From contig CAVTJJ010000006.1 in the NCBI GenBank assembly GCA_963735035.1, forward strand, positions 320,001 through 384,000: a stretch of 64,000 nt of DNA, in the 5' to 3' direction. This DNA comes from an uncultured candidate division Zixibacteria bacterium (GTDB lineage Bacteria > Zixibacteria > MSB-5A5 > GN15 > FEB-12). The translations under genes and the position numbers were made by a program. Below the pieces are notes generated by a model. That model saw only the letters and a list, made by a program, of their open reading frames with translations, was not told the origin of the DNA and ran no database searches. Position 1 is the stretch's first letter. Each line of letters starts with the position of its first letter. Shown here piece by piece: positions 3,202 through 52,694 of the stretch.

Positions 3202-4191
3202 ATGGCAATATTCATAGACAAGAATTCGACTGTAATCGTGCAGGGCATCACGGGCCGCGACGGTTCGTTTCATGCCGAGCAGATGAAGAAATACGGAACG
3301 CGCGTGGTCGGTGGCGTTACCCCCGGCAAAGGCGGTTCCAAGATTAACGGCATCCCCGTATTCAACACCATGAAGGAAGCGGTAGAGAAGACCAAAGCCA
3401 ACACGTCGGTCATTTATGTTCCGCCGTCGTTTGCGGTTGATGCGATTTACGAAGCGGTTTCGGCCGGTATCAAGTTGGTCGTCTGTGTGACCGAAGGTCT
3501 CCCGGCCAACGACATGATGAAAGTCGTGCCGTATGTGAAGAAACATGGCGCCCGCCTGATCGGACCGAACTGCCCTGGCTTGATTTCTCCCGGGATGTCC
3601 AAAGTTGGCATTTTGCCGGGTACGATTGTCAAGCAGGGCAATATCGGTGTCGTGTCGCGCTCTGGCACGCTCACCTATGAAGCGATCTGGGCCCTAACTC
3701 AGGCTGGGATGGGCCAGACGAGCTGTGTGGGTATCGGTGGCGACCAGGTGATCGGCACCAATTTTATCGACTGTCTCCAGGCGTTTCAGGCTGATGCCAG
3801 CACGAAGGGAATCGTTATGATCGGTGAGATCGGCGGTTCAGACGAGGAAGAGGCGGCCAGGTATATTAAGAAGCACGTCACCAAGCCGGTCGTGGCTTTT
3901 ATCGCAGGCCAGACCGCCCCTCCCGGCAAGCGGATGGGCCATGCGGGTGCGATTGTCTCCGGCGGCTCAGGCACGGCCGAGGGTAAGATCAAGGCTTTGA
4001 ATGCAGCGGGCGTCCCGGTAGCGGGATCACCGACTGAACTTCCGGGACTCATGCTGCAAGCCTTCAAGAAGGGTAAAGCAAAGCCAGCCACCGGAACCAA
4101 GAAGACCGCCAAGCCGGCTGCCAAGAGCGCCAAGAAGCCCTCGGGCAAGAAGGCGGCCAAGCCAACTAAGAAGACTGCAAGAAAGAAGTAA
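3202..4191 (+). CDS. sucD: Succinyl-CoA synthetase alpha subunit with Lys/Ala/Pro-rich C-terminal tail
   Basis: [20 protein letters not shown] and RMGHAGAI (phospho-His). Confidence 0.97.
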
Positions 4192-7525: not shown

Positions 7526-8761
7526 ATGAAGATTAGACTCCAATACGACCGCCGCGACCTCGACGTGGACATTCCCGACCGGGTCGATGTTGTGTCGTAT
7601 GGTCTGAACGGGGCGCCGAAGCAAGTCAGTTTGACTGACTTTGTCGACGCTTTCAATAATGCCGGCGGCGATCGGTGGTTAGCCGATGAACCGCCGCTGC
7701 TGATTGTGAACGATGGACATCGGCCCACACCCACGGTACGCGTTCTGGAATGGCTGAATTATTGCGACAAGACGCTTCTGGATCGGGCTCCGGTACTGAT
7801 AGCTTGCGGGACGCATACCGAGCCAACGTCAGAACAACTTCAGAGGATCTTCGGGCCCTTTCTTGGCCGAATAAGACCGCGGCTATCGTGGCACGATTGT
7901 AATGACCTCTCAAGCATGGTGTTGGTGGGAACGGATCGATTCGGTGGAGATATATATATCAATCGTCTGGCGGCCAAAGCCAGAAAGCTGATGATTATCA
8001 CTTCGGTCGAGCCGCACTATTTCGCCGGATTCACGGGTGGGCGCAAGTCTTTGTTCCCCGGCCTGACTGATCGTGCCACGATAGAGCGAAACCATAACCT
8101 GGCCAACTCTCTGGAATGCCAACCGCTCCGATTGTCAGGCAACCCGATGGCGGAGCAGCTTCTCGAATTGTTGCAGTTGATAAACACTGCCGGAGTTTTC
8201 GCTATTCAACTTGTGGTCGATGCGACCCAGCAAATCAGCGATGTCTTCTGCGGTTCTCTGGAAGAGACTTTCAAACAGGCCGTCGAGAAATCGAACCGCT
8301 TTTTCTGTAACGAGGTGGTCGAACCATTCAACCTGATTCTTGCCGAAGTGCGCCCGCCGCTCGATGGCACACTGTATCAGATTCAAAAGGCGCTGGAGAA
8401 TTGTCAGGCCGCCTGCGCCGACGGTGGTACCGTGGCGGTCGTTGCAGCGTGCAAAGATGGTATCGGCAAACGCGACTTCTATGACATGGCAGCGACCTGG
8501 GATCGAAAGAATAACCAGGCATCCGATGGTACTACTCGTTTGGGCTCACACAAGCTCTCGCGAGTCAATGCCATGACCCGACGCATCAACGTGCGGCTCT
8601 TTTCGGAGTTGCCGGATGATCAGCCGCGACGGGTCTTTTATGAACCGGTTCATGATTTGAACGCTCTGGTTGGGCAGTGCTTTCATGAAAACGATAGAAA
8701 CAGGCTGGCGGTTATCTACGACGCCGGCCATACAGTGCTTAAACTAGCAGGTGCGCTCTAA
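7526..8761 (+). CDS. LarA (nickel-pincer lactate racemase) family protein
   Basis: DGHRPTP, ACGTH, HDC, EPHYFAGFTGGRKSLFPG and YQIQKAL motifs typical of LarA/DUF2088. Confidence 0.8.
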   Translation: MKIRLQYDRRDLDVDIPDRVDVVSYGLNGAPKQVSLTDFVDAFNNAGGDRWLADEPPLLIVNDGHRPTPTVRVLEWLNYCDKTLLDRAPVLIACGTHTEPTSEQLQRIFGPFLGRIRPRLSWHDCNDLSSMVLVGTDRFGGDIYINRLAAKARKLMIITSVEPHYFAGFTGGRKSLFPGLTDRATIERNHNLANSLECQPLRLSGNPMAEQLLELLQLINTAGVFAIQLVVDATQQISDVFCGSLEETFKQAVEKSNRFFCNEVVEPFNLILAEVRPPLDGTLYQIQKALENCQAACADGGTVAVVAACKDGIGKRDFYDMAATWDRKNNQASDGTTRLGSHKLSRVNAMTRRINVRLFSELPDDQPRRVFYEPVHDLNALVGQCFHENDRNRLAVIYDAGHTVLKLAGAL

Positions 8762-40280: not shown

Positions 40281-41165
40281 ATGTTAGGTGTAGGAATGGC
40301 AGAAGGGGATAAGAAGAACCCCGGCGGATCGCGAGTCACTAGTGACGAGCGGTATCACTACATTGGCTTTGACGTATTTCCGGGCAAGCCCAAGGATTTG
40401 TTCAAGACCGAAGCTGAAAAGACCCAACTGGTAGAGGCGGTGAAGAGCCGCCGGCAGTCAAACGAAACCCTTCGGGATGACTGCAAGCTCTTGGAAGAGC
40501 GGGTCGGCTCCGGCGAAAGAATTGTCCTGGCGATTGCTTCCGTAGTCATCTTTCTCGCTTTGTTTCTTCCGTGGTACTCAGCTTATACGGTTGTCCCGGA
40601 GACGGCTCCTCAGACATCCGGAGTCTCAGGCACTACGACGACACCCACCACTGATGCCGGCGGGGGCGGTGTAACCAGTCAGCACGGTGAACGCGCCAAT
40701 GAGGAAATTATCACCGGCCGCACTACCCAGTCGCGTACCCGCAGAGAGTACTCGACTCTCAGCGGTCTCGGCGTATTTGCCTCGATCGGCTCGGTCGGCG
40801 GCAAGGTGTTTTCGTCCGGACTCATTTTGATCTTATCTGGCCTGCTGATGCTGGCTTACGGCCTGCTCTGCATTGCGCTGCCGGTCGTCAATCTTTACAC
40901 TCTGTACGGTTTGAAAGGAAAGCCGGACGAACTGGCTCTCAAGCTCAAGCACAATCTTCGTCTGAACTGGCTCCCGCTGCTCATTTTGGTGGCGCTGTTG
41001 CTGTTGTCGCTTCTGGGGTCTGACTACGGTTTCAGCACGACGACATCATTTGTCAGTCTGGGAACAAGCTATGACATCGTCACTATTTTTAACACGCTGT
41101 CGTGGGGTATCTTTGTAGCCATGGCGGCGTCGCTATTGGTGGCTCTAAAAGGAATAGAAATCTAA
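40281..41165 (+). CDS. Hypothetical membrane protein in the TPR-ExbBD-TonB operon
   Basis: 294-aa ORF with 4-5 TM segments, FLPWY motif and a Thr/Gly-rich loop. Confidence 0.7.
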   Translation: MLGVGMAEGDKKNPGGSRVTSDERYHYIGFDVFPGKPKDLFKTEAEKTQLVEAVKSRRQSNETLRDDCKLLEERVGSGERIVLAIASVVIFLALFLPWYSAYTVVPETAPQTSGVSGTTTTPTTDAGGGGVTSQHGERANEEIITGRTTQSRTRREYSTLSGLGVFASIGSVGGKVFSSGLILILSGLLMLAYGLLCIALPVVNLYTLYGLKGKPDELALKLKHNLRLNWLPLLILVALLLLSLLGSDYGFSTTTSFVSLGTSYDIVTIFNTLSWGIFVAMAASLLVALKGIEI

Positions 41166-41194
41166 TTCGCAATACTCTCGGAGGATTTGGAGAA

Positions 41195-41953
41195 GTGGTT
41201 AAACAGACTCTATTTGTAACACTGAATGCCGTCGTGGCGTTCTTTATCGGGCTCGGGCTCTTTATGTTTGTTTTCAAGACCTCGACCATTCCGATCGTCC
41301 ATTCCATCTATAAGGGCGGTCCGCTGGTGGTGGTTCTTATCATGGTTCTGATCATGCTGCTGGTCTTCGTGATCGAGCGCTATTTCTCGCTCTACGGCGT
41401 GGCGAAGGGCAAGAGCTCCGTTCAGGTGTTTTTCAAGAAGCTCGTCACCTTGCTCCAGGGCAATGATTTTGACGGCGCCCTGGCCGCCTGCGACAAGCAG
41501 CGCGGCACGACCGCCAACGTTCTGCGGGCTGGTATCGAACGCTATCGGGAAGTCAAAGACAACCCGGCTATCGACAAGGAAAAGAAGATCACTCTGACCC
41601 AGACCGCCATCGAAGAAGCCAACGCTCTCGAAGGCCCGCTTTTGGAACGGAACCTGATCGCTCTGTCGACCATCGCTTCGATCGCCACCATGGTCGGGCT
41701 GCTCGGCACCACTATCGGTATGATTCGCGCGTTTGCGGCCACCGGTAACGTCGAGGGCGGTGTTATCGACGCTACCCAGTTGGCCACCGGTATTTCCGAA
41801 GCTCTGGTCAACACCGCCGGCGGTCTGATCTCCGGTATTCTCGGAATCTTCTTCTACAATTTCTTCGTCAACAAAGTGGACGCTTTCAACTACACCACCG
41901 ACGAAGCAACTTTTGAAATCATGCAGTTGTTGAAGTCTAAAGAAACGAAGTAG
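41195..41953 (+). CDS. exbB: MotA/TolQ/ExbB proton channel protein
   Basis: LSTIASIATMVGLLGTTIGMIRAF and GISEALVNTAGG; GTG start after GGAG. Confidence 0.93.
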   Translation: MVKQTLFVTLNAVVAFFIGLGLFMFVFKTSTIPIVHSIYKGGPLVVVLIMVLIMLLVFVIERYFSLYGVAKGKSSVQVFFKKLVTLLQGNDFDGALAACDKQRGTTANVLRAGIERYREVKDNPAIDKEKKITLTQTAIEEANALEGPLLERNLIALSTIASIATMVGLLGTTIGMIRAFAATGNVEGGVIDATQLATGISEALVNTAGGLISGILGIFFYNFFVNKVDAFNYTTDEATFEIMQLLKSKETK

Positions 41954-41974
41954 CAAGGCGCGCGTAGGTCTAAT

Positions 41975-42466
41975 ATGGCTGTAAAGAAGAAACGCCGGAT
42001 TTCAATCCGGATTGACATGACGCCGATGGTGGACATCGCCTTTCTGCTGCTCATTTTTTACATGGCGACTACCACGTTCAAACCACCGGAAGCCCGGGCG
42101 GTCGAACTGCCACAGTCTCATTCGCAGATTAAGCTGCCTGACAAGGACGTTATCAATCTGACTGTCTCCAAGGACGATTCGATGTTTGTCGACTTTGTAA
42201 AAGAGGTCGAGATTGAAGTCGACGGTCAGAAGATGATGACCAAGGGGCGGGTTGTAACCAGGGTCGACCTGAGCAATCTCGCTTCAACCCTTCTTAAGGC
42301 CCGAGCCGAGCAGATTCGCGCTTTGGTGGTGGTGAAGGCGGACAAGAGGGCCAATTTCGGCCTGGTGCAGGATATCATGACGCAGATGCAGGAGAACTAC
42401 CTGAATCGCTTCCTGATTATCACTGATAATGAGGTAGATAAGACCACACCGCAGGGCGGTGTGTGA
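41975..42466 (+). CDS. exbD: ExbD/TolR family protein
   Basis: IDMTPMVDIAFLLLIF and VKADK. Confidence 0.93.
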   Translation: MAVKKKRRISIRIDMTPMVDIAFLLLIFYMATTTFKPPEARAVELPQSHSQIKLPDKDVINLTVSKDDSMFVDFVKEVEIEVDGQKMMTKGRVVTRVDLSNLASTLLKARAEQIRALVVVKADKRANFGLVQDIMTQMQENYLNRFLIITDNEVDKTTPQGGV

Positions 42467-42543
42467 TCCGAAACGGATAACAACCCCAACGGTTGCCGGA
42501 TGCTCCAATGCGAACGGTGCCGTCGAAGGGAGCGTGATAGCTA

Positions 42544-43203
42544 ATGGCAGGCGATGTAGTCGAACGAGCAGGTAAAGGTCATAAGAAAGGTTTACGGCGG
42601 CCCAAGCGCCGACTGGCCATCCGCATCGACATGACCCCGATGGTGGATATTGCTTTTCTGCTGCTCATTTTCTATATGGTGACCACCGTGTTTTCGATGC
42701 CCCAGGCGATGGAGATCAATCTCCCTAAGAAGGAACAGGTTGCCGATTCTACCGTGATCAAGGAGTCGAATCTTCTGACTCTGCGGGTGGATTCTCTTAG
42801 CCGTTATTGGTGGCATAAAGGAATAGCCAAGGAAAGCAACCCGCCGCTCTTGATTCCGACACTCACTGCGAAACCGGATTCGGTGGCTTACAAGCTAAAC
42901 GCCGACAGTCTCCGAGCTGTCTTGTTCAATCTGAACAAAGAGAATCCCAAGCTGAGCACGTTGATCTTGATTAGCCGCAAAGCGAGGTACGAGGATATGG
43001 TGAATATTCTCGACGAGATTGACTACCTGGAACGCGGCTGGAATGCGGGGTTGGCGAAACAGCTCAACAAGAAAGTCACCGACTTGACCGAAGCGGACGG
43101 GAAGTTTTCGTATCGTTACGCGGTAGGACAGTGGGAAGAGAAAGACGACCGGCTAATGGACTTAGCGGTGCAGGCGGCCCGGTCCAGCGGCAAGCTTCAA
43201 TAG
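42544..43203 (+). CDS. exbD: ExbD/TolR family protein (second copy)
   Basis: IDMTPMVDIAFLLLIF and YEDMVNILDE. Confidence 0.9.
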   Translation: MAGDVVERAGKGHKKGLRRPKRRLAIRIDMTPMVDIAFLLLIFYMVTTVFSMPQAMEINLPKKEQVADSTVIKESNLLTLRVDSLSRYWWHKGIAKESNPPLLIPTLTAKPDSVAYKLNADSLRAVLFNLNKENPKLSTLILISRKARYEDMVNILDEIDYLERGWNAGLAKQLNKKVTDLTEADGKFSYRYAVGQWEEKDDRLMDLAVQAARSSGKLQ

Positions 43204-43253
43204 TCGGATCCGGAAGGCCGCCGCAGTTGTTTAAGAAACAGAGGTGATTTGAT

Positions 43254-43985
43254 ATGTCGCACACGGAATCGGCCCTGTACTCTCCATATGGAGCGTTCGA
43301 GCTCAAGTCGAAATACCAGCGTAATTTCATGTTCGGAACGCTGTCCGTCTTGGGTTTCGTGCTCTTCATCTTGTTGGTGGCCTGGGTCGTATCGAGTATG
43401 GGCCAGGAGACCGCTATCAGCGATCAGGTAACGGTTATCAAGACTGTCGCCGATCTGGGTCCTCCGCCGACACTGGCGAAGAAACCGCCGCAGGTTCAGG
43501 TCAACCAGCCTCAGGTGGCTGCTCCGAAAGTAGGTATTCCGGTTCCGGTGGCCGACGACGAAGCCCCGGAAGAAGATGTCGTGATGGCCACTCGTGAAGA
43601 AATGGCCGACATCGCTGCGCCTGACATCGCTGCGGATGCCAACCAGGATATCAAAGTTGATATCGCGGAAGAGGATTATCTGCCTTCGATCGACGAGTTC
43701 GTGGCGGTCGAGCAAAGCGCTGACATGGTTTACGAAGAAAAGCCGGTCTATCCGCGTCTGGCCGAGCAGGCCGGTCTTGAAGGGGTAGTCTGGGTAAAGG
43801 CGCTTGTTGGCAGTGACGGCAGTGTGAAGAATGCGGTGGTTTTCAAATCCTCCGGTACGCCGTCGCTCGACGAAGCCGCCGTTGCAGCGGCGCCCAAATG
43901 CAAGTACAAACCGGCAATTCAGAATGGACGCTCGGTGGCTATGTGGGTGGCCTATAAGGTGGAATTCACCCTGAAGAACCGTTGA
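43254..43985 (+). CDS. tonB: Energy transducer TonB
   Basis: YGAFELK, TM segment, Pro-rich linker and PVYPRLAEQAGLEG C-domain. Confidence 0.92.
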   Translation: MSHTESALYSPYGAFELKSKYQRNFMFGTLSVLGFVLFILLVAWVVSSMGQETAISDQVTVIKTVADLGPPPTLAKKPPQVQVNQPQVAAPKVGIPVPVADDEAPEEDVVMATREEMADIAAPDIAADANQDIKVDIAEEDYLPSIDEFVAVEQSADMVYEEKPVYPRLAEQAGLEGVVWVKALVGSDGSVKNAVVFKSSGTPSLDEAAVAAAPKCKYKPAIQNGRSVAMWVAYKVEFTLKNR

Positions 43986-44009
43986 GCGAAGTTCTACTCA
44001 TTGATTTCT

Positions 44010-44042
44010 AAGCGCCCGGCTTTGGTCGGGCGCTTTCTTTTT
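44010..44042 (+). terminator. Rho-independent terminator
   Basis: aagcgcccggc-tttg-gtcgggcgctt followed by T-tract. Confidence 0.85.
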
Positions 44043-44171
44043 CACAGATATTAGACTCTATTCGTCTTTATTGCGGGTGACACCAAATTCGGAGTTCCTG
44101 CCCGCCCTTGATTATTCGTCCAGGAGGGACGTGCGACCGCGCACGAAACCTGCCCTTCGTAGGAGGCGAAT

Positions 44172-44921
44172 ATGGCTAACACAGCACTCACCCCGTTTGC
44201 CGGTTACGGCGCCTATCAACTGAAAGCGACCTACCAGCGCAACATGCTCTGGGCACTCGGCACCACCACCGGCCTGGTCACACTGATGGTCGCGCTCGGC
44301 GGAATCTTGCTGGGAACTCAAAACGCTCCAGCTTCGTCGGGTCCGCATTCAGGTGACTTTGTAGCGGATACGATAAAGTTCCATCCAATACCGCCTCCTA
44401 CCATTGAGCGATCACGGCCGGACGTTAGACCGTCCCGTCCGAAACCGCAGAAAGATAACGGAAGTATCCTCAGGCCAGTCGATGACACCTCGTCGACAGT
44501 GGAGGATCCCGTGTTGCCGTATGAACCGGGGGACTCCTCAGTTGGTCCTGTGGGAGACGGCGGCGGTTCCGGAGAAGGGGATGGAGCCGGCGTAGGCACT
44601 ATTGATACGGTCGAGTATCTGCCGTCAATAGATAGCTTCGTGCCGGTCGAACGGGATCCGGTAATGATCTACTCGGTTCAGCCGGAGTATCCTCGTTGGT
44701 TCAAGGATGCGGGTATTGAAGGGATAGTAGTAATCAAAGCCCTGGTTGGTCGTAAGGGCGACGTTCTGGACGCGGCGGTTTATGTAAGTTCCGGTATCAA
44801 GCTGCTTGATGAAGCGGCTCTGGCGGTGGCCGGGAAGTACAAATACCAGCCGGCGGTCCAGAACGGCCGCCCGGTGGCGGTCTGGGTTACCTATAAGGTA
44901 GACTTCAAGTTATCTAAGTAG
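44172..44921 (+). CDS. tonB: Energy transducer TonB (second copy)
   Basis: YGAYQLK, TM segment, Pro/Gly linker and PEYP...AGIEG C-domain; RBS AGGAGG. Confidence 0.9.
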   Translation: MANTALTPFAGYGAYQLKATYQRNMLWALGTTTGLVTLMVALGGILLGTQNAPASSGPHSGDFVADTIKFHPIPPPTIERSRPDVRPSRPKPQKDNGSILRPVDDTSSTVEDPVLPYEPGDSSVGPVGDGGGSGEGDGAGVGTIDTVEYLPSIDSFVPVERDPVMIYSVQPEYPRWFKDAGIEGIVVIKALVGRKGDVLDAAVYVSSGIKLLDEAALAVAGKYKYQPAVQNGRPVAVWVTYKVDFKLSK

Positions 44922-44948
44922 CGGTTCTTGTGGCAGCGTCGACGGGGT

Positions 44949-44988
44949 AAGGCCGGTGGTCTGGTGACCGCCGGCCTTTTGTCATTTT
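44949..44988 (+). terminator. Rho-independent terminator
   Basis: aaggccggtggtc-tggt-gaccgccggcctt followed by T-rich tract. Confidence 0.8.
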
Positions 44989-45021
44989 TGGTCTTTTCAC
45001 AAAATTTCTCTGATTTCCTAC

Positions 45022-45050
45022 TTGACACCTGCACAAATGTGCAGTATTAT
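45022..45050 (+). promoter_or_regulatory. sigma70 promoter with palindromic operator in the spacer
   Basis: TTGACA-N17-TATTAT; spacer contains CTGCACA-AA-TGTGCAG (45029-45044). Confidence 0.8.
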
Positions 45051-45096
45051 CTGTTAAGCATGATAGAAACCCCATACGCCAGGAGGCGTGAGAAGT

Positions 45097-45348
45097 ATGA
45101 GTTTACAGAGCAGCAATTTTCAGGTCGAGTACCAGGCCGTCCTTTTCGAAGCGGCCGTACCGCTGGCGACCGAAGCCGATTTTTACAACCGTCACCTGTT
45201 TCAGGACATCGATCTCTTCGGGGTGGCGGACAGCGACAATTTCGCCTACCAGAACGCGGCGACCTGCCCGGACTGCTCCGGCGGCATGATTCGTCAGGGG
45301 CGGTGCTGCGCTTGTCCGTCGTGCGGATACGAAAGCTGCCTGATTTAA
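45097..45348 (+). CDS. Small acidic protein with C-terminal Zn ribbon
   Basis: RBS AGGAGG; CPDC-x10-CPSCGYESC. Confidence 0.7.
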   Translation: MSLQSSNFQVEYQAVLFEAAVPLATEADFYNRHLFQDIDLFGVADSDNFAYQNAATCPDCSGGMIRQGRCCACPSCGYESCLI

Positions 45349-45387
45349 GATGTAGGGAATAACCCCGGCCACGGGGGAGGAGGTGCC

Positions 45388-48084
45388 ATGCAATTGGGAG
45401 AATTGACAAGATACGGGATTTCGGAACGAATGATCGAAGTTTGGCGAAAACGTCAGGGCGACACTCTCCTGCCGGTACAACGGCGGGCGATCCGTCAGGG
45501 GCTGCTTGATCCGGGGTCACCGGGAGTAGCCCGGTCGAACCTGATTATCGCCGCGCCGACCTCGGCCGGTAAATCGTTCTGCGCCGAACTGGCCGTCGCC
45601 CGGGCCCTGGCGAACCGTCAGCGGGTGGTCATGGTATTTCCGCTGAAATCTCTCGTGGAGCAGAAGTATGCGATGTTCTGTCGCACCTACGAATCGCTCG
45701 GGATCAAATGCCTCATCTTGACCTCGGATCATCCTGAAAACGATCGCCGGTTCCTGACCGGGGAATATCATATCGCTCTGGCCATACAGGAGAAATTCGA
45801 CTTGGCGCTTGCCGGACGGCTGGACCTCCTGCGCAATATCGGTCTGATCGTAATCGATGAGCTTCAGACGATCTCGGAGCCGGGGCGGGGAGCGGTGTTG
45901 GAACGACTGCTGACGCGCATTATGGCTTCCACGTTTCGTCCGGAGATTATTGGGCTGTCGGCAGTGCTGATGGATCAGCGGATCGATCCGCTCGCCCTCT
46001 GGTTGAACGCGACCGTGGTTGAAGAGACCACTCCCCCGCGCGAACTGATTCGCGGTGTCGTCGCCGACGGCAAGCTGACCTACCGCAGCTACAACGATGG
46101 GCGCGACGGCTGTGAAGACCTGGGCGAGTCCTGCCCGGGGCACGATGCCGAGCAGACGGCGGCCTGGCTGGCGAGTCGCATCAAAGCCGATTCCGGGCGC
46201 ACGCTCATATTCCTGAAATCACGCCTTGATACCGTCAACCTGGCCCTCCGGCTGGCCGCGGTTCTGGGACGGCCATCGGCGGTCGAGGCGCTGAAGCAAT
46301 TCGACGACGAGGAACCGTCGTTTTTGCTCCGTTCGCTCACCCAGGCGATGAATCACGGGATAGCCTTCCACAACTCGGATCTGTCGTCACACCAGCGGAC
46401 CGTGGTCGAGAACGCTTTCTGTGCCGGAGAAATCTCGGTACTCTGCGCCACGACCACGCTGGCACTGGGGGTGAATCTTCCGGCCGATACGGTTTTTCTC
46501 GAGACCGTCAAATACGCTTCCGGTGAGTATGGCGGTCGCCCGGACCTGGTGCCGATCAGCCGGGCCGAATTCGATAACATGACCGGTCGGGCGGGGAGAC
46601 TCGGTTTCGAAAGCAGCGGGCCGGGCAAGGCGTTCGTTCTGGCCGACTCAGCCTTCGAATCCGATGTGCTCTGGAAAGCCTATCTCGCCCCGTGTCAACC
46701 GCAGCCCATGCAGTCGGCCTGGGACCCTCTGGCGGTCGATGATTGGGCGCTTCACATGATCGTCTGCGGTCTGGTCCGGACGGATGACGATTTGCAGCAA
46801 GTCTATTCCCAGACGCTACGCCACTGTCTCAACTCCGATTCAGCGAACGGTCACTCGTCCCATCCCGATTTCGGGGCGTCGTTGGCGCGGCTGAGTGAGT
46901 CGGGTTTCATCCGCCGGAACGCCGACGGTTCGATGGAGCCGTCCTCCGTGGCGACCGCGGTGGTGACTTCGGGTCTGTCACTCAACGAGGCGCACCACTA
47001 CTTGCGGTATCTGGAGACGTCGGATCTCCCCGAGACCCCTTTCGGCTGGACCTGTCTGGCGCTGAGCTCGCCGGAATGGGCGCTGCCGCCGGCAATACTG
47101 TCCCGTTATGAGCAGGCCAACAATGCTCCGGTGCGGATGCTGTACCGTCGCTTTGACCATTCCGTCGAAGAGGCGGTCTCACTCCTGCCCGAGGATCATC
47201 GCCGCCAGCCCCTGCCATATCGGGTTGCGGCGACGCTCAAAGCGGCGCTGTTGTTAGACGATTGGAGCCATCTGACCCCGGCGCAGAAGATCGAAGAGCG
47301 GTACCATTTGCATCTGGGCCAGATTCAGTATTTGGGGCGGACGGCGGCCCATCTGGTGTCGGCTCTGGGACGATTGATAGCAGCCGGCGACCGTGAATCA
47401 GAGCGCCCCCGTTATCTGACCGATCATGCTTTCTCGCTTCGTTTCGGTCTGCCGCCCGGCTTCCGGGAAATCCATCGCCACTTCTCCCATCTGTTGTCAC
47501 GCACCGATTTTCAGAAGCTGCACAAGGCCGGGGTGGAGAGCCTGGAAGAGTTTTGTGAATTGTCCTCATCGCGTCTCGCTGGCCTGTTCGACGACACTCA
47601 TAAGATACAGCATATTATAGCGTTAAATGATACTCTTAAAGAGGAGGTTGATGTGCATACGGCAATGTTGGATAGCCATGCGCCGCTCACCCGGCAGCCC
47701 CGGGTGATCGAAATCGACGGTACCTTCGAAGCGGATCGGTACCTCGTGCGGATCGACGGTTTCCCGGTTCGGTTGACCGGCAAGTCGTTCAAATACCTCA
47801 CCCGGTTGGCCTGGTCGCGGTTACACGACTCCAACGGATGGGTCTACAAGGAAGACATCGAGGTCGGCTTCAATCAGGCCCGGTATCTATACCGGATGAA
47901 GAACGAGATTTCGGCCGGATTCCGGTCGGGTTGGCCGGTGGTGGAGAACAACCGGCTGGGATATTATCGTCTGCAGATTGAGCCTGACAAGATTCATCTG
48001 AATGTCGACAACCTGCGGAGTCATCCCGATTACGAACTGCGGAGTTTGTTTGAGGCGGGTGGTCAGACGAGTGCGGTCAATTGA
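45388..48084 (+). CDS. Ski2/Hel308-like SF2 helicase with C-terminal winged-helix extension
   Basis: Q motif LLPVQ, APTSAGKS, PLKSL, DELQ, GLSA, FHNSDL, ATTTLALGVNLPA and MTGRAGR; RBS GGAGG. Confidence 0.88.
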   Translation: MQLGELTRYGISERMIEVWRKRQGDTLLPVQRRAIRQGLLDPGSPGVARSNLIIAAPTSAGKSFCAELAVARALANRQRVVMVFPLKSLVEQKYAMFCRTYESLGIKCLILTSDHPENDRRFLTGEYHIALAIQEKFDLALAGRLDLLRNIGLIVIDELQTISEPGRGAVLERLLTRIMASTFRPEIIGLSAVLMDQRIDPLALWLNATVVEETTPPRELIRGVVADGKLTYRSYNDGRDGCEDLGESCPGHDAEQTAAWLASRIKADSGRTLIFLKSRLDTVNLALRLAAVLGRPSAVEALKQFDDEEPSFLLRSLTQAMNHGIAFHNSDLSSHQRTVVENAFCAGEISVLCATTTLALGVNLPADTVFLETVKYASGEYGGRPDLVPISRAEFDNMTGRAGRLGFESSGPGKAFVLADSAFESDVLWKAYLAPCQPQPMQSAWDPLAVDDWALHMIVCGLVRTDDDLQQVYSQTLRHCLNSDSANGHSSHPDFGASLARLSESGFIRRNADGSMEPSSVATAVVTSGLSLNEAHHYLRYLETSDLPETPFGWTCLALSSPEWALPPAILSRYEQANNAPVRMLYRRFDHSVEEAVSLLPEDHRRQPLPYRVAATLKAALLLDDWSHLTPAQKIEERYHLHLGQIQYLGRTAAHLVSALGRLIAAGDRESERPRYLTDHAFSLRFGLPPGFREIHRHFSHLLSRTDFQKLHKAGVESLEEFCELSSSRLAGLFDDTHKIQHIIALNDTLKEEVDVHTAMLDSHAPLTRQPRVIEIDGTFEADRYLVRIDGFPVRLTGKSFKYLTRLAWSRLHDSNGWVYKEDIEVGFNQARYLYRMKNEISAGFRSGWPVVENNRLGYYRLQIEPDKIHLNVDNLRSHPDYELRSLFEAGGQTSAVN

Positions 48085-48097
48085 CGCACCGGCATCG

Positions 48098-48349
48098 TGG
48101 CTGGTGGACGTTTATAGATGTTTGTGGCTGGTGGACGTCCTCGTCCACCAGCGCGAGGATCGAAAGGTTGTGTCAGGTCTTGTCCTCGGCCCGCCGCAGG
48201 CGGGGTGGGGATGTGACCTGACACGCAACCTATTCGCATTAAACGGTGTCAGTTCACACGCCCCCGATTTCAATCGGGGGCGCAGGAACTGACACAACCT
48301 CTCGTTGATGCGTCGGTAACGTGACAGACGGACGTCCTCGTCCACCAGC
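48098..48349. repeat. REP-like palindrome cluster between convergent genes
   Basis: gctggtggacgtcctcgtccaccagc (one full and two partial copies); gtgtcagg..cctgacac and gtgtcagttc..gaactgacac. Confidence 0.8.
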
Positions 48350-48356
48350 GTTAGGA

Positions 48357-49631
48357 TCAATCAAGCACTTCAGCCGCCGAAACCCCGGCCAACCAGCCGG
48401 TCGAGAAAGCGGCCTGAAGGTTGAACCCGCCCGTGGGGCCGTCGATGTCCAGCAGCTCTCCCGCGAAGAAAAGCCCTTTGACCAGCCGCGACTGCATGGT
48501 GCGGGGATCGATTTCGCGAAGATCGACGCCCCCCGCGGTTACGACGGCCTCGTCGTACATACGATGTCCCGACACATCGAAGCGGAAATCTTTTAGCCAG
48601 TGGCGCAAGCGGCGGCGCTCTACCGCGGTGATCTGACTCCCCGGCGAAGTCTCCGGCAGATCGTTGAGATCAAGACATACGGGCACCAGTCTGGCCGGAA
48701 GAAGTTCTTTAAGTATGGTCGACAACTGCTTCTTGCCCAATTCGTTGAAGCGTTCCACCAGAAATGCTTCGAGCATCCGTTCGTCCTTGGCGGGGAGAAG
48801 ATCAATTGAAATCTGTACTGCTTTTCCGGCCTGTAACCCGTCGACCGCCAGTCGGCTCAGTTGGAGAATCACCGGTCCGGACAATCCATAATGCGTGAAG
48901 ATCAGGTCGCCAATTAATCCGGCAACCGGCTTCTCGTCGATCAATAACCGGACACTGATATCGTGCAGGCTTATGCCTTGAAGCCGGGAAGCGGCGTCAC
49001 CTCTGGTTTCCAGCGGGACCAGCACGGGCCGAGTGGCCACTATGGTATGTCCGAGGGATTGAGCCAGCGCATACCCGTCACCGGTCGAGCCGGTCTCGGG
49101 GTAGGACATCCCACCGGTCGCAAGAACAACGGCGTCGGCTGGATATTCTTTGTGACGCCCGGCCCGGACGACTCTAACACAGCCGTCCTCCTTCACGATC
49201 TCCGTTACCTTAGCATCTGTTACCAGTTCGGCGCCGCAATCGACTGCCCACTGCCCCAAGACGCGGGCAAGCTCGGGGGCGCAGTTGCCTTTCGGAAAGA
49301 ACTTCCCACCCGGCTCCAGTTCGACCTCAATGCCGAGGTTCTGGAACATCCCGATCAAGTCGGTGGAGAAGAAGCGCATGAACGCCTGGCGCAGGAACCG
49401 GCCGTTGGGGCCGTAGGCATCGATGAATTGTTCGAGGGGGGCGCTGTTGGTGAGATTGCATCGTCCTTTGCCGGTGATGCTGAGTTTCCGCCCCGGGGCG
49501 CTCATTTTCTCAAGGATTAGGACGTGTGCGCCCGCTGAAGCGGCCGATCCGGCGGCCATAAGTCCGGCCGCTCCGCCACCGACGACGACCACGCGCCGTT
49601 TTCGTCCTTGATTAGGCAATTCGTCTGACAT
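48357..49631 (-). CDS. HI0933/YhiN (BaiN-like) flavoprotein
   Basis: GGGAAG, GKGRCNLTN, ATGGMSYPETGSTGDG and GPTGGFNLQAA. Confidence 0.93.
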   Translation of the reverse strand: MSDELPNQGRKRRVVVVGGGAAGLMAAGSAASAGAHVLILEKMSAPGRKLSITGKGRCNLTNSAPLEQFIDAYGPNGRFLRQAFMRFFSTDLIGMFQNLGIEVELEPGGKFFPKGNCAPELARVLGQWAVDCGAELVTDAKVTEIVKEDGCVRVVRAGRHKEYPADAVVLATGGMSYPETGSTGDGYALAQSLGHTIVATRPVLVPLETRGDAASRLQGISLHDISVRLLIDEKPVAGLIGDLIFTHYGLSGPVILQLSRLAVDGLQAGKAVQISIDLLPAKDERMLEAFLVERFNELGKKQLSTILKELLPARLVPVCLDLNDLPETSPGSQITAVERRRLRHWLKDFRFDVSGHRMYDEAVVTAGGVDLREIDPRTMQSRLVKGLFFAGELLDIDGPTGGFNLQAAFSTGWLAGVSAAEVLD

Positions 49632-50035: not shown

Positions 50036-50232
50036 GGTCTTGCGGCGACTACACTAGGGGAAGGACGGCTGACGGGCGTCAGAGCCTGAGGGCGACGCTT
50101 GCGCCACCTGCCATCCACCATTTCATCGTCCCAGGAGACTGATAACCGGCAGGTACCGGAAGGGCCGGATTCTGTCGAACCTAGGTGCAATCTAACCTGT
50201 TTTGTCCGATAACAATAGAACGGTCAGGATAT

Positions 50233-52694
50233 ATGGTCATAAAGAGCAAACACAGACTTCAACTGGTAGCCAGCGACAGCGAAGATTCTCATCCGGTTCT
50301 GCCGTTGATGACCGAAGTTTTGTTTCCTGGCATGATGATTACGATTCATGTCGGACGACCGGAAAACCTGGCTCTGCTTGAGAAAGTATTCGAACAGCGG
50401 GCGCAGTTTGTCGCGGCCTATTCCCAATCCGGATTTGACACCCAGGGGACACGCCCGATCTACCAGGTCGGGGTCCTGGCCGAAGTGCGCGATATTCGCG
50501 AGGGCACCGGCGACACCAAGGTAGTCACTCTCGAAGGCATCCGCCGGGTTGCTATCAGCAAGATTACGAGCGAAGAGCCGTTCCTTCAGGGGAAAGTCAA
50601 CGCGGTCGAGACACCTTCTTTCGTAAACAAGACCATTCGGGAGAAAGTGTCTGAAGTTATAGCCATCGTCAGCGAAATCACCCACCTCGATCCGACTTAT
50701 TCGCCGGAATTGTCCAACGTGCTGAAGACCAGCGCGGAAGACCCGGCCCTTCTCGCCGATCACGTCGCGGCCAGTTTCCACTTTTCGCTTTCGGCAAAGC
50801 AGGAAATTCTCGAGTGCGTGGCCCTGGACGAGCGGTACGAACACCTGCTGAACCAGCTTAACAACGAGCTCAACCGGGCGGCGACCGTCCTGAGCATTCA
50901 GGACAAGGTTAAGAAACAGATCGAATCCGAGCAGCAGAAATACTTCCTGCGGCAGCAGCTTCATGAGATTCGCCGCCAACTGGGCGAAGACCCCAGCGAA
51001 GAAAAGGAAGTCGCCCGTTGGAAGCGGTTGGTGAAGAGTCTACCCAAGCTCCCGCACGAAGTGCTGGATCGGTCGCGTATCGAAATCGAACGCCTCGGTC
51101 AACTAAGTCCGGCATCGGGCGAGTACGGCGCTACCAAGAACTATCTCGACTGGTTGTTGAATCTACCTTGGGGCAAGACCGCTCAAGAAGATTATCAGAT
51201 TGCAGAAGTCCAGAAAGTCATCGATACCGATTATTTCGGCCCTGATTCTCTCAAAGGAGCGAATTCTGCAGCGGCTGTCAGTTCGCAAACTGCTCGGCGG
51301 CAAGGATGAGGGTCCAACGCTCTGTCTGGTCGGTGCACCCGGAACCGGTAAGGCCTCGCTGGCCAAGGCGATAGCTAAAGCGATCGGCAAAGAATTGATC
51401 CGGATTTCGGTCGGTGGGATTACTGCCGTGGCGGATATAAAGGGCACCCCCCGGACCTATCTGGGAGCTCAACCAGGACAGATCGTTCGCACTCTACGGC
51501 AAGCGGGAAGTTGCGATCCGGTGGTGCTGCTTGAAGACATTGACTATTTCAACGTCGATAATAATTCTTCAGTCAATATGGCCTTGCTCGAAGTGATTGA
51601 CGCCCGCTATAACGCCCACTTCCTGGATCAATATGTCGGCGTGCCGTTCGATTTGAGCCGCATCTTCTTCGTCTGTTCGGTTCGTTCCTACGAAGAGATT
51701 CCGGAACAATTCGTGCCGCGTCTGGAGATAATTGAGCTGCCCGGATACATCGAGCGCGAGAAGATTACGATCGCCAAGAGATACATCATTCCCGGCATGC
51801 TCGAGAAGCACGGGCTGAAGAAATCGGAAGTTCACATTTCCGACCGGACTCTGTCGAAGATCATCGGCAACTACACGATGGAAGCCGGGTTGGTTGGCTT
51901 GTCGCAGCAATTGGAGCGAATCTGTCGCAAGATCGCCTTGCACAAGGCCGAAAACCACAAACGCAGTTGGTTGGTGAGCGAGAAGACACTCGATTCGTAT
52001 CTCGGTACGCCGCTGTACATTCCGGAGAAAGCCGAATCAGTGCCGGAAGTCGGCAATGCGGCCGGATTGGCCTGGACCGGCGCGGGCGGCGAGTTGATGT
52101 TTATCGAAGGCTTGAAGATGAAGGGGGAAGGCCAGATCATTACGACCGGATCGCTCGGCGAAGTCATGCGCGAGTCGATTCAGGCCGCCCATTCATATGT
52201 CCGCTCCAAGGCCGACGTTCTTGGTATCGATTTCAGTGACTTCAACGAATTCGATATTCACATTCACTTTCCGTCAGGCGCCATTCCCGAAAGACGGCCC
52301 GTCCGCGGGTATCACAGTCTGTCTTGTCATCGCGTCGGTTATGTCGGAGCGCCCGATTCGAAATGACATCGCCATGACCGGTGAAGTGACGCTTCGGGGT
52401 AAAGTGCTTCCGGTTGGCGGAACCAAGGAGAAGATTTCTGCCGCCTACCGCGCCGGTATCTACAATGTCGTGCTCCCCAAGGAGAACGAAAAAGACCTGA
52501 AAGACATCCCGCGCGAAATTCTTCGCCAGACCAAGTTCTACTTCATCCAGAGTGTGGACGAGCTTTTTGAGCTTTGCTTGCTCGATTTCAAGCCGTCGAC
52601 TTACACGCTCGAGAAGATCTTCGCCGAAGAGATCGCCCGTGCCCGCAAGAAACCCGCTCGTCGAAAGCGACCGGTGGCACGGCGCGCGCGCTGA
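50233..52694 (+). CDS. lon: Lon protease (LonA architecture) split by two single-base frameshifts (~51254, ~52287); ATPase motifs atypical
   Basis: N-domain [21 protein letters not shown] module, [18 protein letters not shown] and [10 protein letters not shown]; removing one base at each site gives ~819 aa. Confidence 0.88.

Follow-up and report, generated by a model that had tools for sequence, protein, structure and literature searches.

A Hel308-like helicase with a C-terminal OmpR/PhoB-type winged helix in a putatively LexA-controlled operon of Zixibacteria

Described relatives

Helicases of the Hel308 kind are otherwise typical of archaea and animals, where Hel308 and HELQ have been studied as repair enzymes. 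The gene considered here encodes a bacterial relative and lies in a 64,000-nucleotide stretch of a Zixibacteria genome (contig CAVTJJ010000006.1, positions 320,001 to 384,000), called the window below. Its product is predicted to carry, on a flexible tether behind a Hel308-type superfamily 2 (SF2) helicase, a winged helix of the OmpR/PhoB type. Together with a small open reading frame (ORF) for a zinc-ribbon protein with six cysteines (Cys6), the gene probably forms an operon that is repressed by LexA and induced by DNA damage.

The likeness to Hel308 (Hjm) extends over the whole archaeal protein with its five domains, namely RecA1, RecA2, winged helix, ratchet and helix-hairpin-helix (HhH), although identity is only about 21–24%. 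Motif II is of the DExQ form in place of DExH, and motif VI opens with N in place of the Q of QxxGRxGR. Motif IVa, for which the abstract of PMC10484726 gives the Hel308 consensus F/YHHAGL, reads FHNSDL. The protein is bacterial, has about 140 extra C-terminal residues containing a winged helix, and its gene follows an operator of LexA type. Because its sequence departs from Hel308 at these motifs and a domain has been added, the protein is filed, on sequence, as a member of a Hel308-like bacterial family and not as Hel308 proper. The second-best structural match is the helicase domain of DNA polymerase theta (Pol theta), which with HELQ belongs to the same clade of DNA-repair helicases; here, however, there is neither a polymerase domain nor the N-terminal extension of HELQ, and the C-terminal addition is a different one.

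HamB and other defence helicases have the SF2 Ski2-like core in common with this protein, but the likeness is limited to the RecA domains. The locus is not a Hachiman system, since HamA is absent, similarity is confined to the helicase core and the gene belongs to the core gene set, not to an island. The OmpR/PhoB and SARP domains (BaeR, VanR, SaeR, PhoB, CadC, ToxR, EmbR, AfsR) resemble the C-terminal domain, which differs from them in being fused to a helicase rather than to a receiver domain, in lacking a match to Pfam Trans_reg_C, and in having a signature of its own and an additional C-terminal strand with two helices. A functional parallel is possibly offered by RecQ, a bacterial SF2 repair helicase moving 3'-5' that holds duplex DNA by a winged helix of its own, although it belongs to a different helicase family. 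E. coli DinG, a helicase controlled by LexA, resembles XPD, contains an iron-sulfur cluster and moves 5'-3'. Control of a helicase gene by a LexA-type repressor, putative in the present case, is thus common to both, but the helicase of the present locus resembles Hel308 and seems to be the principal conserved target instead of one among many. A review on HELQ and Hel308 (2026) states that Ski2-like helicases occur in bacteria. In the literature reached, neither a bacterial Hel308-like helicase under LexA nor a LexA regulon of Zixibacteria was found; most subscription journals lay outside the search, so that this is no proof of absence. Within that literature, the locus can be called undescribed, as an earlier model-made reading of the bare DNA (the sequence-only reading) had proposed.

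The operon and its palindromic operator

The features of the transcription unit are as follows.

44949..44978, forward strand: terminator-like hairpin closing the TonB-like gene (13-pair stem, then a T-run)
45022..45050, forward strand: sigma-70-type promoter (TTGACA at 45022-45027, 17-nucleotide spacer, TATTAT at 45045-45050)
45030..45043, no strand assigned: putative LexA (SOS) operator, the perfect 14-base-pair palindrome TGCACAAATGTGCA, in the promoter spacer between -35 and -10
45097..45348, forward strand: small ORF of 83 amino acids, its ATG behind AGGAGG
45388..48084, forward strand: helicase gene, 898 amino acids, stop codon included

The predicted hairpin delimits the helicase transcription unit on its 5' side. 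The promoter matches the consensus at 11 of 12 positions and is the best of the region. The helicase gene, whose limits are exactly those of the ORF picked out by the sequence-only reading, begins 39 nucleotides behind the small ORF and has its own GGAGG. The pairing of the two genes, likewise proposed there, recurs at every one of 20 loci of the same family and at 11 of 20 in other families. The small ORF has a variable N-terminus, and conservation is confined to roughly the last 27 residues; these contain a zinc-ribbon-like motif, C-x2-C-x9-C-x2-C-x2-CG-x3-C, whose six cysteines are invariant in 30 orthologues. A weak NCBIfam match (3e-05) links it to the Cys-rich C-terminal tail of B12-dependent ribonucleotide reductase. 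It has no significant Pfam match (IBR at E 0.038 is below cut-off) and matches no PADLOC model. Over positions 44800-48500, Rfam returned only a plant microRNA model, far below threshold (E 0.013). No RNA sequencing run was found to contain the locus, and a single DNA run shares a small part of its sequence words.

Conservation of the operator was followed in a phylum sample of 121 genomes from 80 genera, in which G000 is the genome holding the window (3.6 Mb in 6 contigs, 96.9% complete), other G-numbers are sampled genomes, L-numbers are loci, and f1, f6, f10 and f11 are family labels. The nearest protein relatives carry the label Candidatus Zixiibacteriota. The layout searched, TTGACA with at most one mismatch, two nucleotides and the 14-mer with at most five mismatches, is found within the same family at all 20 helicase loci and at 25 of the 27 lexA loci (L040 and L048 lack it). 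Of 20 regions upstream of the helicase operon drawn from 13 other families, 18 show the element clearly and two (L078 and L082) hold diverged forms. When the 94 bases around the element are aligned over 40 helicase loci, information is found only in CTTGACA-nn-TGCACAnATGTGCAGTAT, with none in the flanks; the block CTTGACA-nn-14mer-GTAT is the sole conserved stretch. A degenerate form of 25 nucleotides has 188 matches, against 16 in the reversed control, distributed over 108 of the 121 genomes with mostly one to three in each. Among the 150 of these 188 places that were listed, those compared by eye lie in front of the helicase operon and lexA.

In G000, just two sites join a -35 box to a high operator score, one before the helicase operon (24.4) and the other before lexA (22.5), the next scoring 10.0. 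The lexA promoter (G000:C6:540455-540479, operator G000:C6:540463) consists of TTGACA, two nucleotides, a 14-mer identical at 12 of 14 positions, and GTA. This gene (G000:C6:540533-541132) is monocistronic in G000 and lies about 175 kb from the helicase gene on the same contig; the repressor that the sequence-only reading had expected is thus not encoded beside the helicase. Twelve other 14-mers of G000 score 14.5-17.9; they are mostly within long ORFs, none is linked to a -35 box, and they were rejected as regulon members. All three f11 genomes possess a third copy of the element, situated before a gene for a Y-family polymerase of the IMS/DinB type (L178 in G089, L179 in G050, L180 in G093), and the one such gene scanned matches Pfam IMS at 7.4e-55. 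In the same three genomes the Cys6 small ORF was not found before the helicase gene. Further extra copies of the element precede prophage-like regions. Two extra copies stand before genes resembling SocA/Panacea antitoxins (Pfam 1.6e-14 for L183, G097:C52, and 6.6e-21 for L184, G060:C134), and these may belong to mobile elements under SOS control.

The case for LexA

The LexA of G000 is above its NCBIfam cut-off (207.6 vs 110.95), and its translation shows AG, GDSM and KR at what are presumably the cleavage site and the places of the catalytic Ser and Lys. Autoregulation is the rule for LexA, and an element at lexA itself is therefore expected. No lexA match is present in any of the three f6 genomes, which keep the helicase with its C-terminal domain; in the two of them whose helicase upstream regions were examined, there is no TTGAC-linked element (best scores 3.6 and 0.7). 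In f10, a form of the type GAAC..GTTC has replaced the usual operator both at lexA and at the helicase operon, and one f1 genome has undergone a comparable symmetric change. For Bacillus subtilis and further Gram-positive bacteria, the published motif of LexA is GAAC-N4-GTTC (PMC3323433). Occurrence at lexA, loss in f6, where no lexA was found, joint change in f10 and presence before the dinB-like gene all point to LexA as the binder. Repressor control and a link to DNA damage, both proposed from the bare sequence, gain support from the operator common to lexA and the dinB-like gene.

In the mechanism proposed, LexA would bind the palindrome in the promoter spacer and thereby block RNA polymerase. 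Upon DNA damage, self-cleavage of LexA stimulated by RecA would free the promoter, and the operon would be expressed. The helicase, like Hel308, would then load on single-stranded DNA and move 3'-5' at forks that have stalled or at recombination intermediates, while the tethered winged helix might hold or steer it on nearby duplex DNA, either independently of sequence or at some target.

Several points weigh against this account, which nevertheless is considered probable. Binding by LexA, induction by damage and activity as a helicase are predictions made from sequence and modelled structure. At recA of G000 the element is missing (best score 3.6 in 650 bases across its start, G000:C3:540651-541300), and this gene seems to be outside the regulon, which is unusual for an SOS regulon. 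Two genomes, G052 and G053 (completeness 97% and 96%), keep the helicase element, although no full lexA was found in them. A LexA consensus attributed to a related phylum, searched as an exact pattern, is not enriched in G000 (11 matches vs 8 in the control); this consensus was not confirmed in the literature and is not used as evidence. The scoring matrix was derived from the helicase and lexA sites themselves, and the top ranks of these two sites are thus partly circular, whereas the emptiness of the rest of G000 for the element is not. The helicase remains below the NCBIfam equivalog cut-offs for Hel308, with 228.7 vs 887 for PRK02362 and 174 vs 1200 for helicase_Hel308 (NF040935 and related). 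For residues 731-898, which include the C-terminal domain, no Pfam family is matched at E<=10.

Since only the helicase operon and lexA carry the element in G000, the helicase is possibly the chief effector of the SOS response in this phylum. A broader picture can be drawn tentatively, and is rather doubtful as a whole: the SOS response of the phylum would be pared down to one effector operon, its Hel308-type helicase would be guided by an OmpR-type DNA-reading head to DNA sites, to DNA structures or to RNA polymerase, and free-standing heads in prophage-like elements would interfere with this function or borrow it. If LexA control is true, the list of SOS genes gains a new member, enzymes studied in archaea and animals gain a tractable bacterial setting, and an SOS regulon cut to almost one effector, with recA outside, is exemplified.

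The C-terminal winged helix

The protein is divided as follows.

45388..47658, forward strand: residues 1-757, Hel308-like five-domain core (Pfam, NCBIfam, alignment and model); from N- to C-terminus the Q motif (Q31), RecA1 (GKS, DELQ), RecA2 (FHNSDL, NMTGRAGR), winged helix, ratchet domain and HhH domain
47650..47691, forward strand: residues 755-768, flexible linker, with a predicted local distance difference test score (pLDDT) <50
47698..47982, forward strand: residues 771-865, OmpR/PhoB-type winged helix-turn-helix (model, Foldseek, VIA-align and hhalign)
47983..48057, forward strand: residues 866-890, extension of the C-terminal domain, one strand and two short helices

The extra C-terminal residues, some 130–140 in number, form a discrete domain, which matches 279 database representatives at E<=0.001, 135 of them at E<=1e-10. 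When the last 134 residues are modelled alone from 83 sequences, pLDDT reaches 93.7. The model contains three strands, a helix, a short helix, a long helix and a hairpin, behind which come one more strand and two helices; in it the recognition helix is N829-K838 and the wing is the beta-hairpin. The N-terminal sheet, helix 1, the helix-turn-helix and the C-terminal hairpin wing that characterize the OmpR/PhoB fold are therefore all found in the predicted model. All 50 entries listed by VIA-align are DNA-binding domains of this type (Z 7.0-9.9), and the top Foldseek matches are weak yet consistently OmpR/PhoB effector domains. The profile of the domain finds the DNA-binding domain of ArlR in the PDB at E 0.04. 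In hhalign against six Trans_reg_C domains of G000, a suggestive match (probability 76%, E 2.3e-05, 73 columns) is in register, pairing LT-K-F with LT-E-F, the recognition helices with each other, and R-G-YRL with RGVGYRL. In 32 relatives, fused or free-standing, Trans_reg_C (PF00486) is unmatched at E<=1. As the fold is of the OmpR/PhoB type but nothing in Pfam corresponds to it, the domain is probably a divergent, Pfam-unnamed branch of this winged helix.

It is also the best-conserved part of the helicase protein. Residues G817, W818, N854, G858, Y860, R861 and L862 are invariant in 73 members, and the signature reads G-W, NQARYLYR, ENNRxGxYRL. The extension (residues 866-890) is kept in fused and free-standing relatives, and the SARP proteins EmbR and AfsR also align over it in VIA-align. 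Defining the target of this domain, which exists both fused and free-standing, would show how a module of transcription-factor type steers a helicase.

Besides or instead of acting in repair, the helicase might, as the sequence-only reading also suggested, be a sequence-specific transcription regulator, of its own promoter or of other genes. The effector fold of the C-terminal domain, its flexible linker and a recognition helix (N829-K838) that is nearly invariant across the phylum are consistent with such a role. At the 40 helicase promoters, however, nothing is conserved within the 94 bases beyond the -35 box, the palindrome and GTAT, and an OmpR-style direct repeat is therefore absent there, the search having been limited to the helicase promoters. 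Winged helices, moreover, may contact DNA irrespective of its sequence or may attach to a protein. A regulatory function is regarded as unlikely.

The helicase core

In Pfam, DEAD is matched at residues 29-194 (6.7e-22) and Helicase_C at residues 316-406 (2.3e-09), and Helicase_dom4_arc, the archaeal helicase domain 4, is found under the cut-off at residues 611-669. The NCBIfam Hel308 model PRK02362 covers residues 11-733 (1.3e-67). By sequence, the closest solved structure is Hel308 9b15_A (1.8e-44), followed in order by ASCC3, Slh1, Brr2, Pol theta, Ski2 and Mtr4, with HamB far lower. AlphaFold modelling of the complete protein from 73 sequences gave a pLDDT of 89.2 and a predicted template modelling (TM) score of 0.79. 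The top Foldseek matches of this model are Hel308/Hjm structures (9b15, 2zj8, 2zj5, 2va8, 2p6r; E 1.2e-39 to 2.9e-35), which align over 712-780 columns and their whole length with target TM scores of 0.83-0.90, and the next are the Pol theta helicase domain (5aga, 9bpa; E about 1e-35) and Brr2 cassettes. Strands 374-378 and 385-389 of the model form a beta-hairpin ahead of motif VI, a further point of likeness to archaeal Hel308.

Aligned to 9b15_A, motif II reads VIDELQ against VVDEIH of Hel308, motif III SAV against SAT, motif IVa FHNSDL against FHHAGL and motif VI NMTGRAGR against QMAGRAGR, and the stretch LHKAGVESLEE pairs with the HhH of Hel308 domain 5. In the family alignment of 73 members, D157, E158, G400, G403 and R404 are invariant, as are H328 and D331 of motif IVa in the family, and Q160 and N397 are kept in at least 90%, so that the variant motifs are a family trait and not noise. 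The residues for ATP binding and the arginine finger (GKS, DE, GRxGR) are intact in the predicted protein. The paired changes from DExH to DExQ and from Q to N, being family-wide, offer a natural test of cooperation between motifs II and VI. The sequence-only reading had described a Hel308-like layout, the departures DELQ, SAV and NMTGR, and about 130 further residues resembling an OmpR/PhoB domain, for which it suggested a Foldseek check. The layout is recovered by the NCBIfam and 9b15_A alignments and by Foldseek, the departures by the residue-level alignment and family conservation, and the C-terminal domain by the model, VIA-align and Foldseek, where the effector domains came out on top, if weakly, with hhalign suggestive of the same.

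The DExQ form of motif II is a hallmark of Suv3, and many homologues exceed the cut-off of Pfam DEXQc_Suv3, which shows that DExQ boxes occur in active helicases of another family. It might also suggest an RNA helicase of the Ski2/Suv3 kind, engaged in RNA decay or surveillance, and Ski2, Mtr4 and Brr2 are indeed among the relatives. The chance of this is slim: the top matches in sequence and fold are the DNA helicases Hel308/Hjm and Pol theta, the protein possesses a ratchet and an HhH domain of the Hel308 type, and the promoter layout is common to lexA and dinB.

Self-binding as an alternative to LexA

The palindrome might be bound by the winged helix of the helicase rather than by LexA, in which case the helicase would regulate itself and lexA. 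The most perfect palindrome is that of the helicase promoter, operator and recognition helix are both highly conserved, and G052 and G053 keep the element, as stated above. On the other hand, f6 has the helicase and its C-terminal domain in the absence of both lexA (0/3) and, in the two genomes examined, the element. An element before the dinB-like gene and the general autoregulation of LexA also speak for LexA, and OmpR-type domains mostly bind direct repeats. Some operator variants, moreover, equal the published Gram-positive LexA motif (PMC3323433). Self-binding is thus considered very improbable, and LexA is retained as the candidate repressor.

Distribution and neighbourhood

The helicase is present in 116 of the 121 genomes and 77 of the 80 genera, mostly at full length (to about residue 888) and in one copy. 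The C-terminal domain is found in 118 of the 121, nearly always within the helicase frame. At least 10 of the 19 related loci retain the TonB-like gene upstream, and the gene for a HI0933-like flavoprotein downstream recurs in the same genus only. This near-universal, mostly single-copy occurrence and the conserved upstream synteny mark the helicase as a chromosomal core gene, not a defence-island or mobile module.

Free-standing copies of the C-terminal domain are rare in the phylum. Two are found on the reverse strand at L084 (G043:C1), at 3485-3946 (153 amino acids) and 7557-7991 (144 amino acids); they sit in a prophage-like stretch, adjoined by ORFs that by eye resemble ParB, a cytosine methyltransferase and RNase H. 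A further copy in G101 (C83:23875-24255) lies about 6 kb downstream of a LexA-type element (C83:17850). Many short representatives of the domain occur in metagenomes, and some of them may be no more than pieces of helicase genes, cut off where a contig ends. Among the best 80 of 117 relatives of the free-standing domain, almost all are labelled Zixibacteria, GN15, Ignavibacteriales, Calditrichota or FCB group or have no phylum, and the three other labels are Phycisphaerales, Deferrimicrobium and Acidoferrum. In the ESM Atlas, the nearest clusters are partly viral (tailed phages), and this counts as no more than a lead. Phage records, plasmid records and IMG/VR yielded no relative.

An anti-phage helicase of the Hachiman (HamB) or AbpB kind, with the small ORF as its partner, is most improbable: the PADLOC models HamB and PDC-M23B do match at about 1e-33, HamB 8vx9 is among the solved relatives (3.7e-18), and the prophage-like setting in G043 and the viral Atlas clusters lend some colour to the idea, but the PADLOC matches are confined to the helicase core (residues 25-425; HamB, 49-425), the Hel308 models score twice as high and cover far more of the protein, the gene is not patchy but near-universal with its TonB neighbour kept, its neighbours (a TonB_C protein, the Cys6 small ORF and the HI0933-like flavoprotein) include nothing like HamA, and the C-terminal domain is unmatched in the phage, plasmid and IMG/VR collections. 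Of the interpretation made from the bare sequence, the layout, the winged helix, the two-gene unit and the link to a repressor and to DNA damage have stood, and the anti-phage reading is left unsupported on these grounds.

A RecQ-family gene is above cut-off in just 18 of the 121 genomes, G000 not among them, and RecG is present. The helicase is missing from five genomes, three of which (G021, G112 and G115) have RecQ. Since related genomes are not independent, this pattern is a lead on the niche of the helicase only.

Around the operon in the window, a run of genes resembling membrane energy transducers extends over 41102-44921 on the forward strand. It ends with two TonB_C ORFs confirmed by Pfam (43254..43985 and 44172..44921, forward strand), of which the second is the conserved neighbour of the helicase operon; the three ORFs before this pair are ExbB/ExbD-like by eye. 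Downstream, a gene that by eye resembles Lon protease lies at 50185-52694 on the forward strand and is split into three overlapping ORFs (50185..51309, 51200..52366 and 52197..52694), suggesting frameshifts that come either from an assembly error or from decay of the gene.

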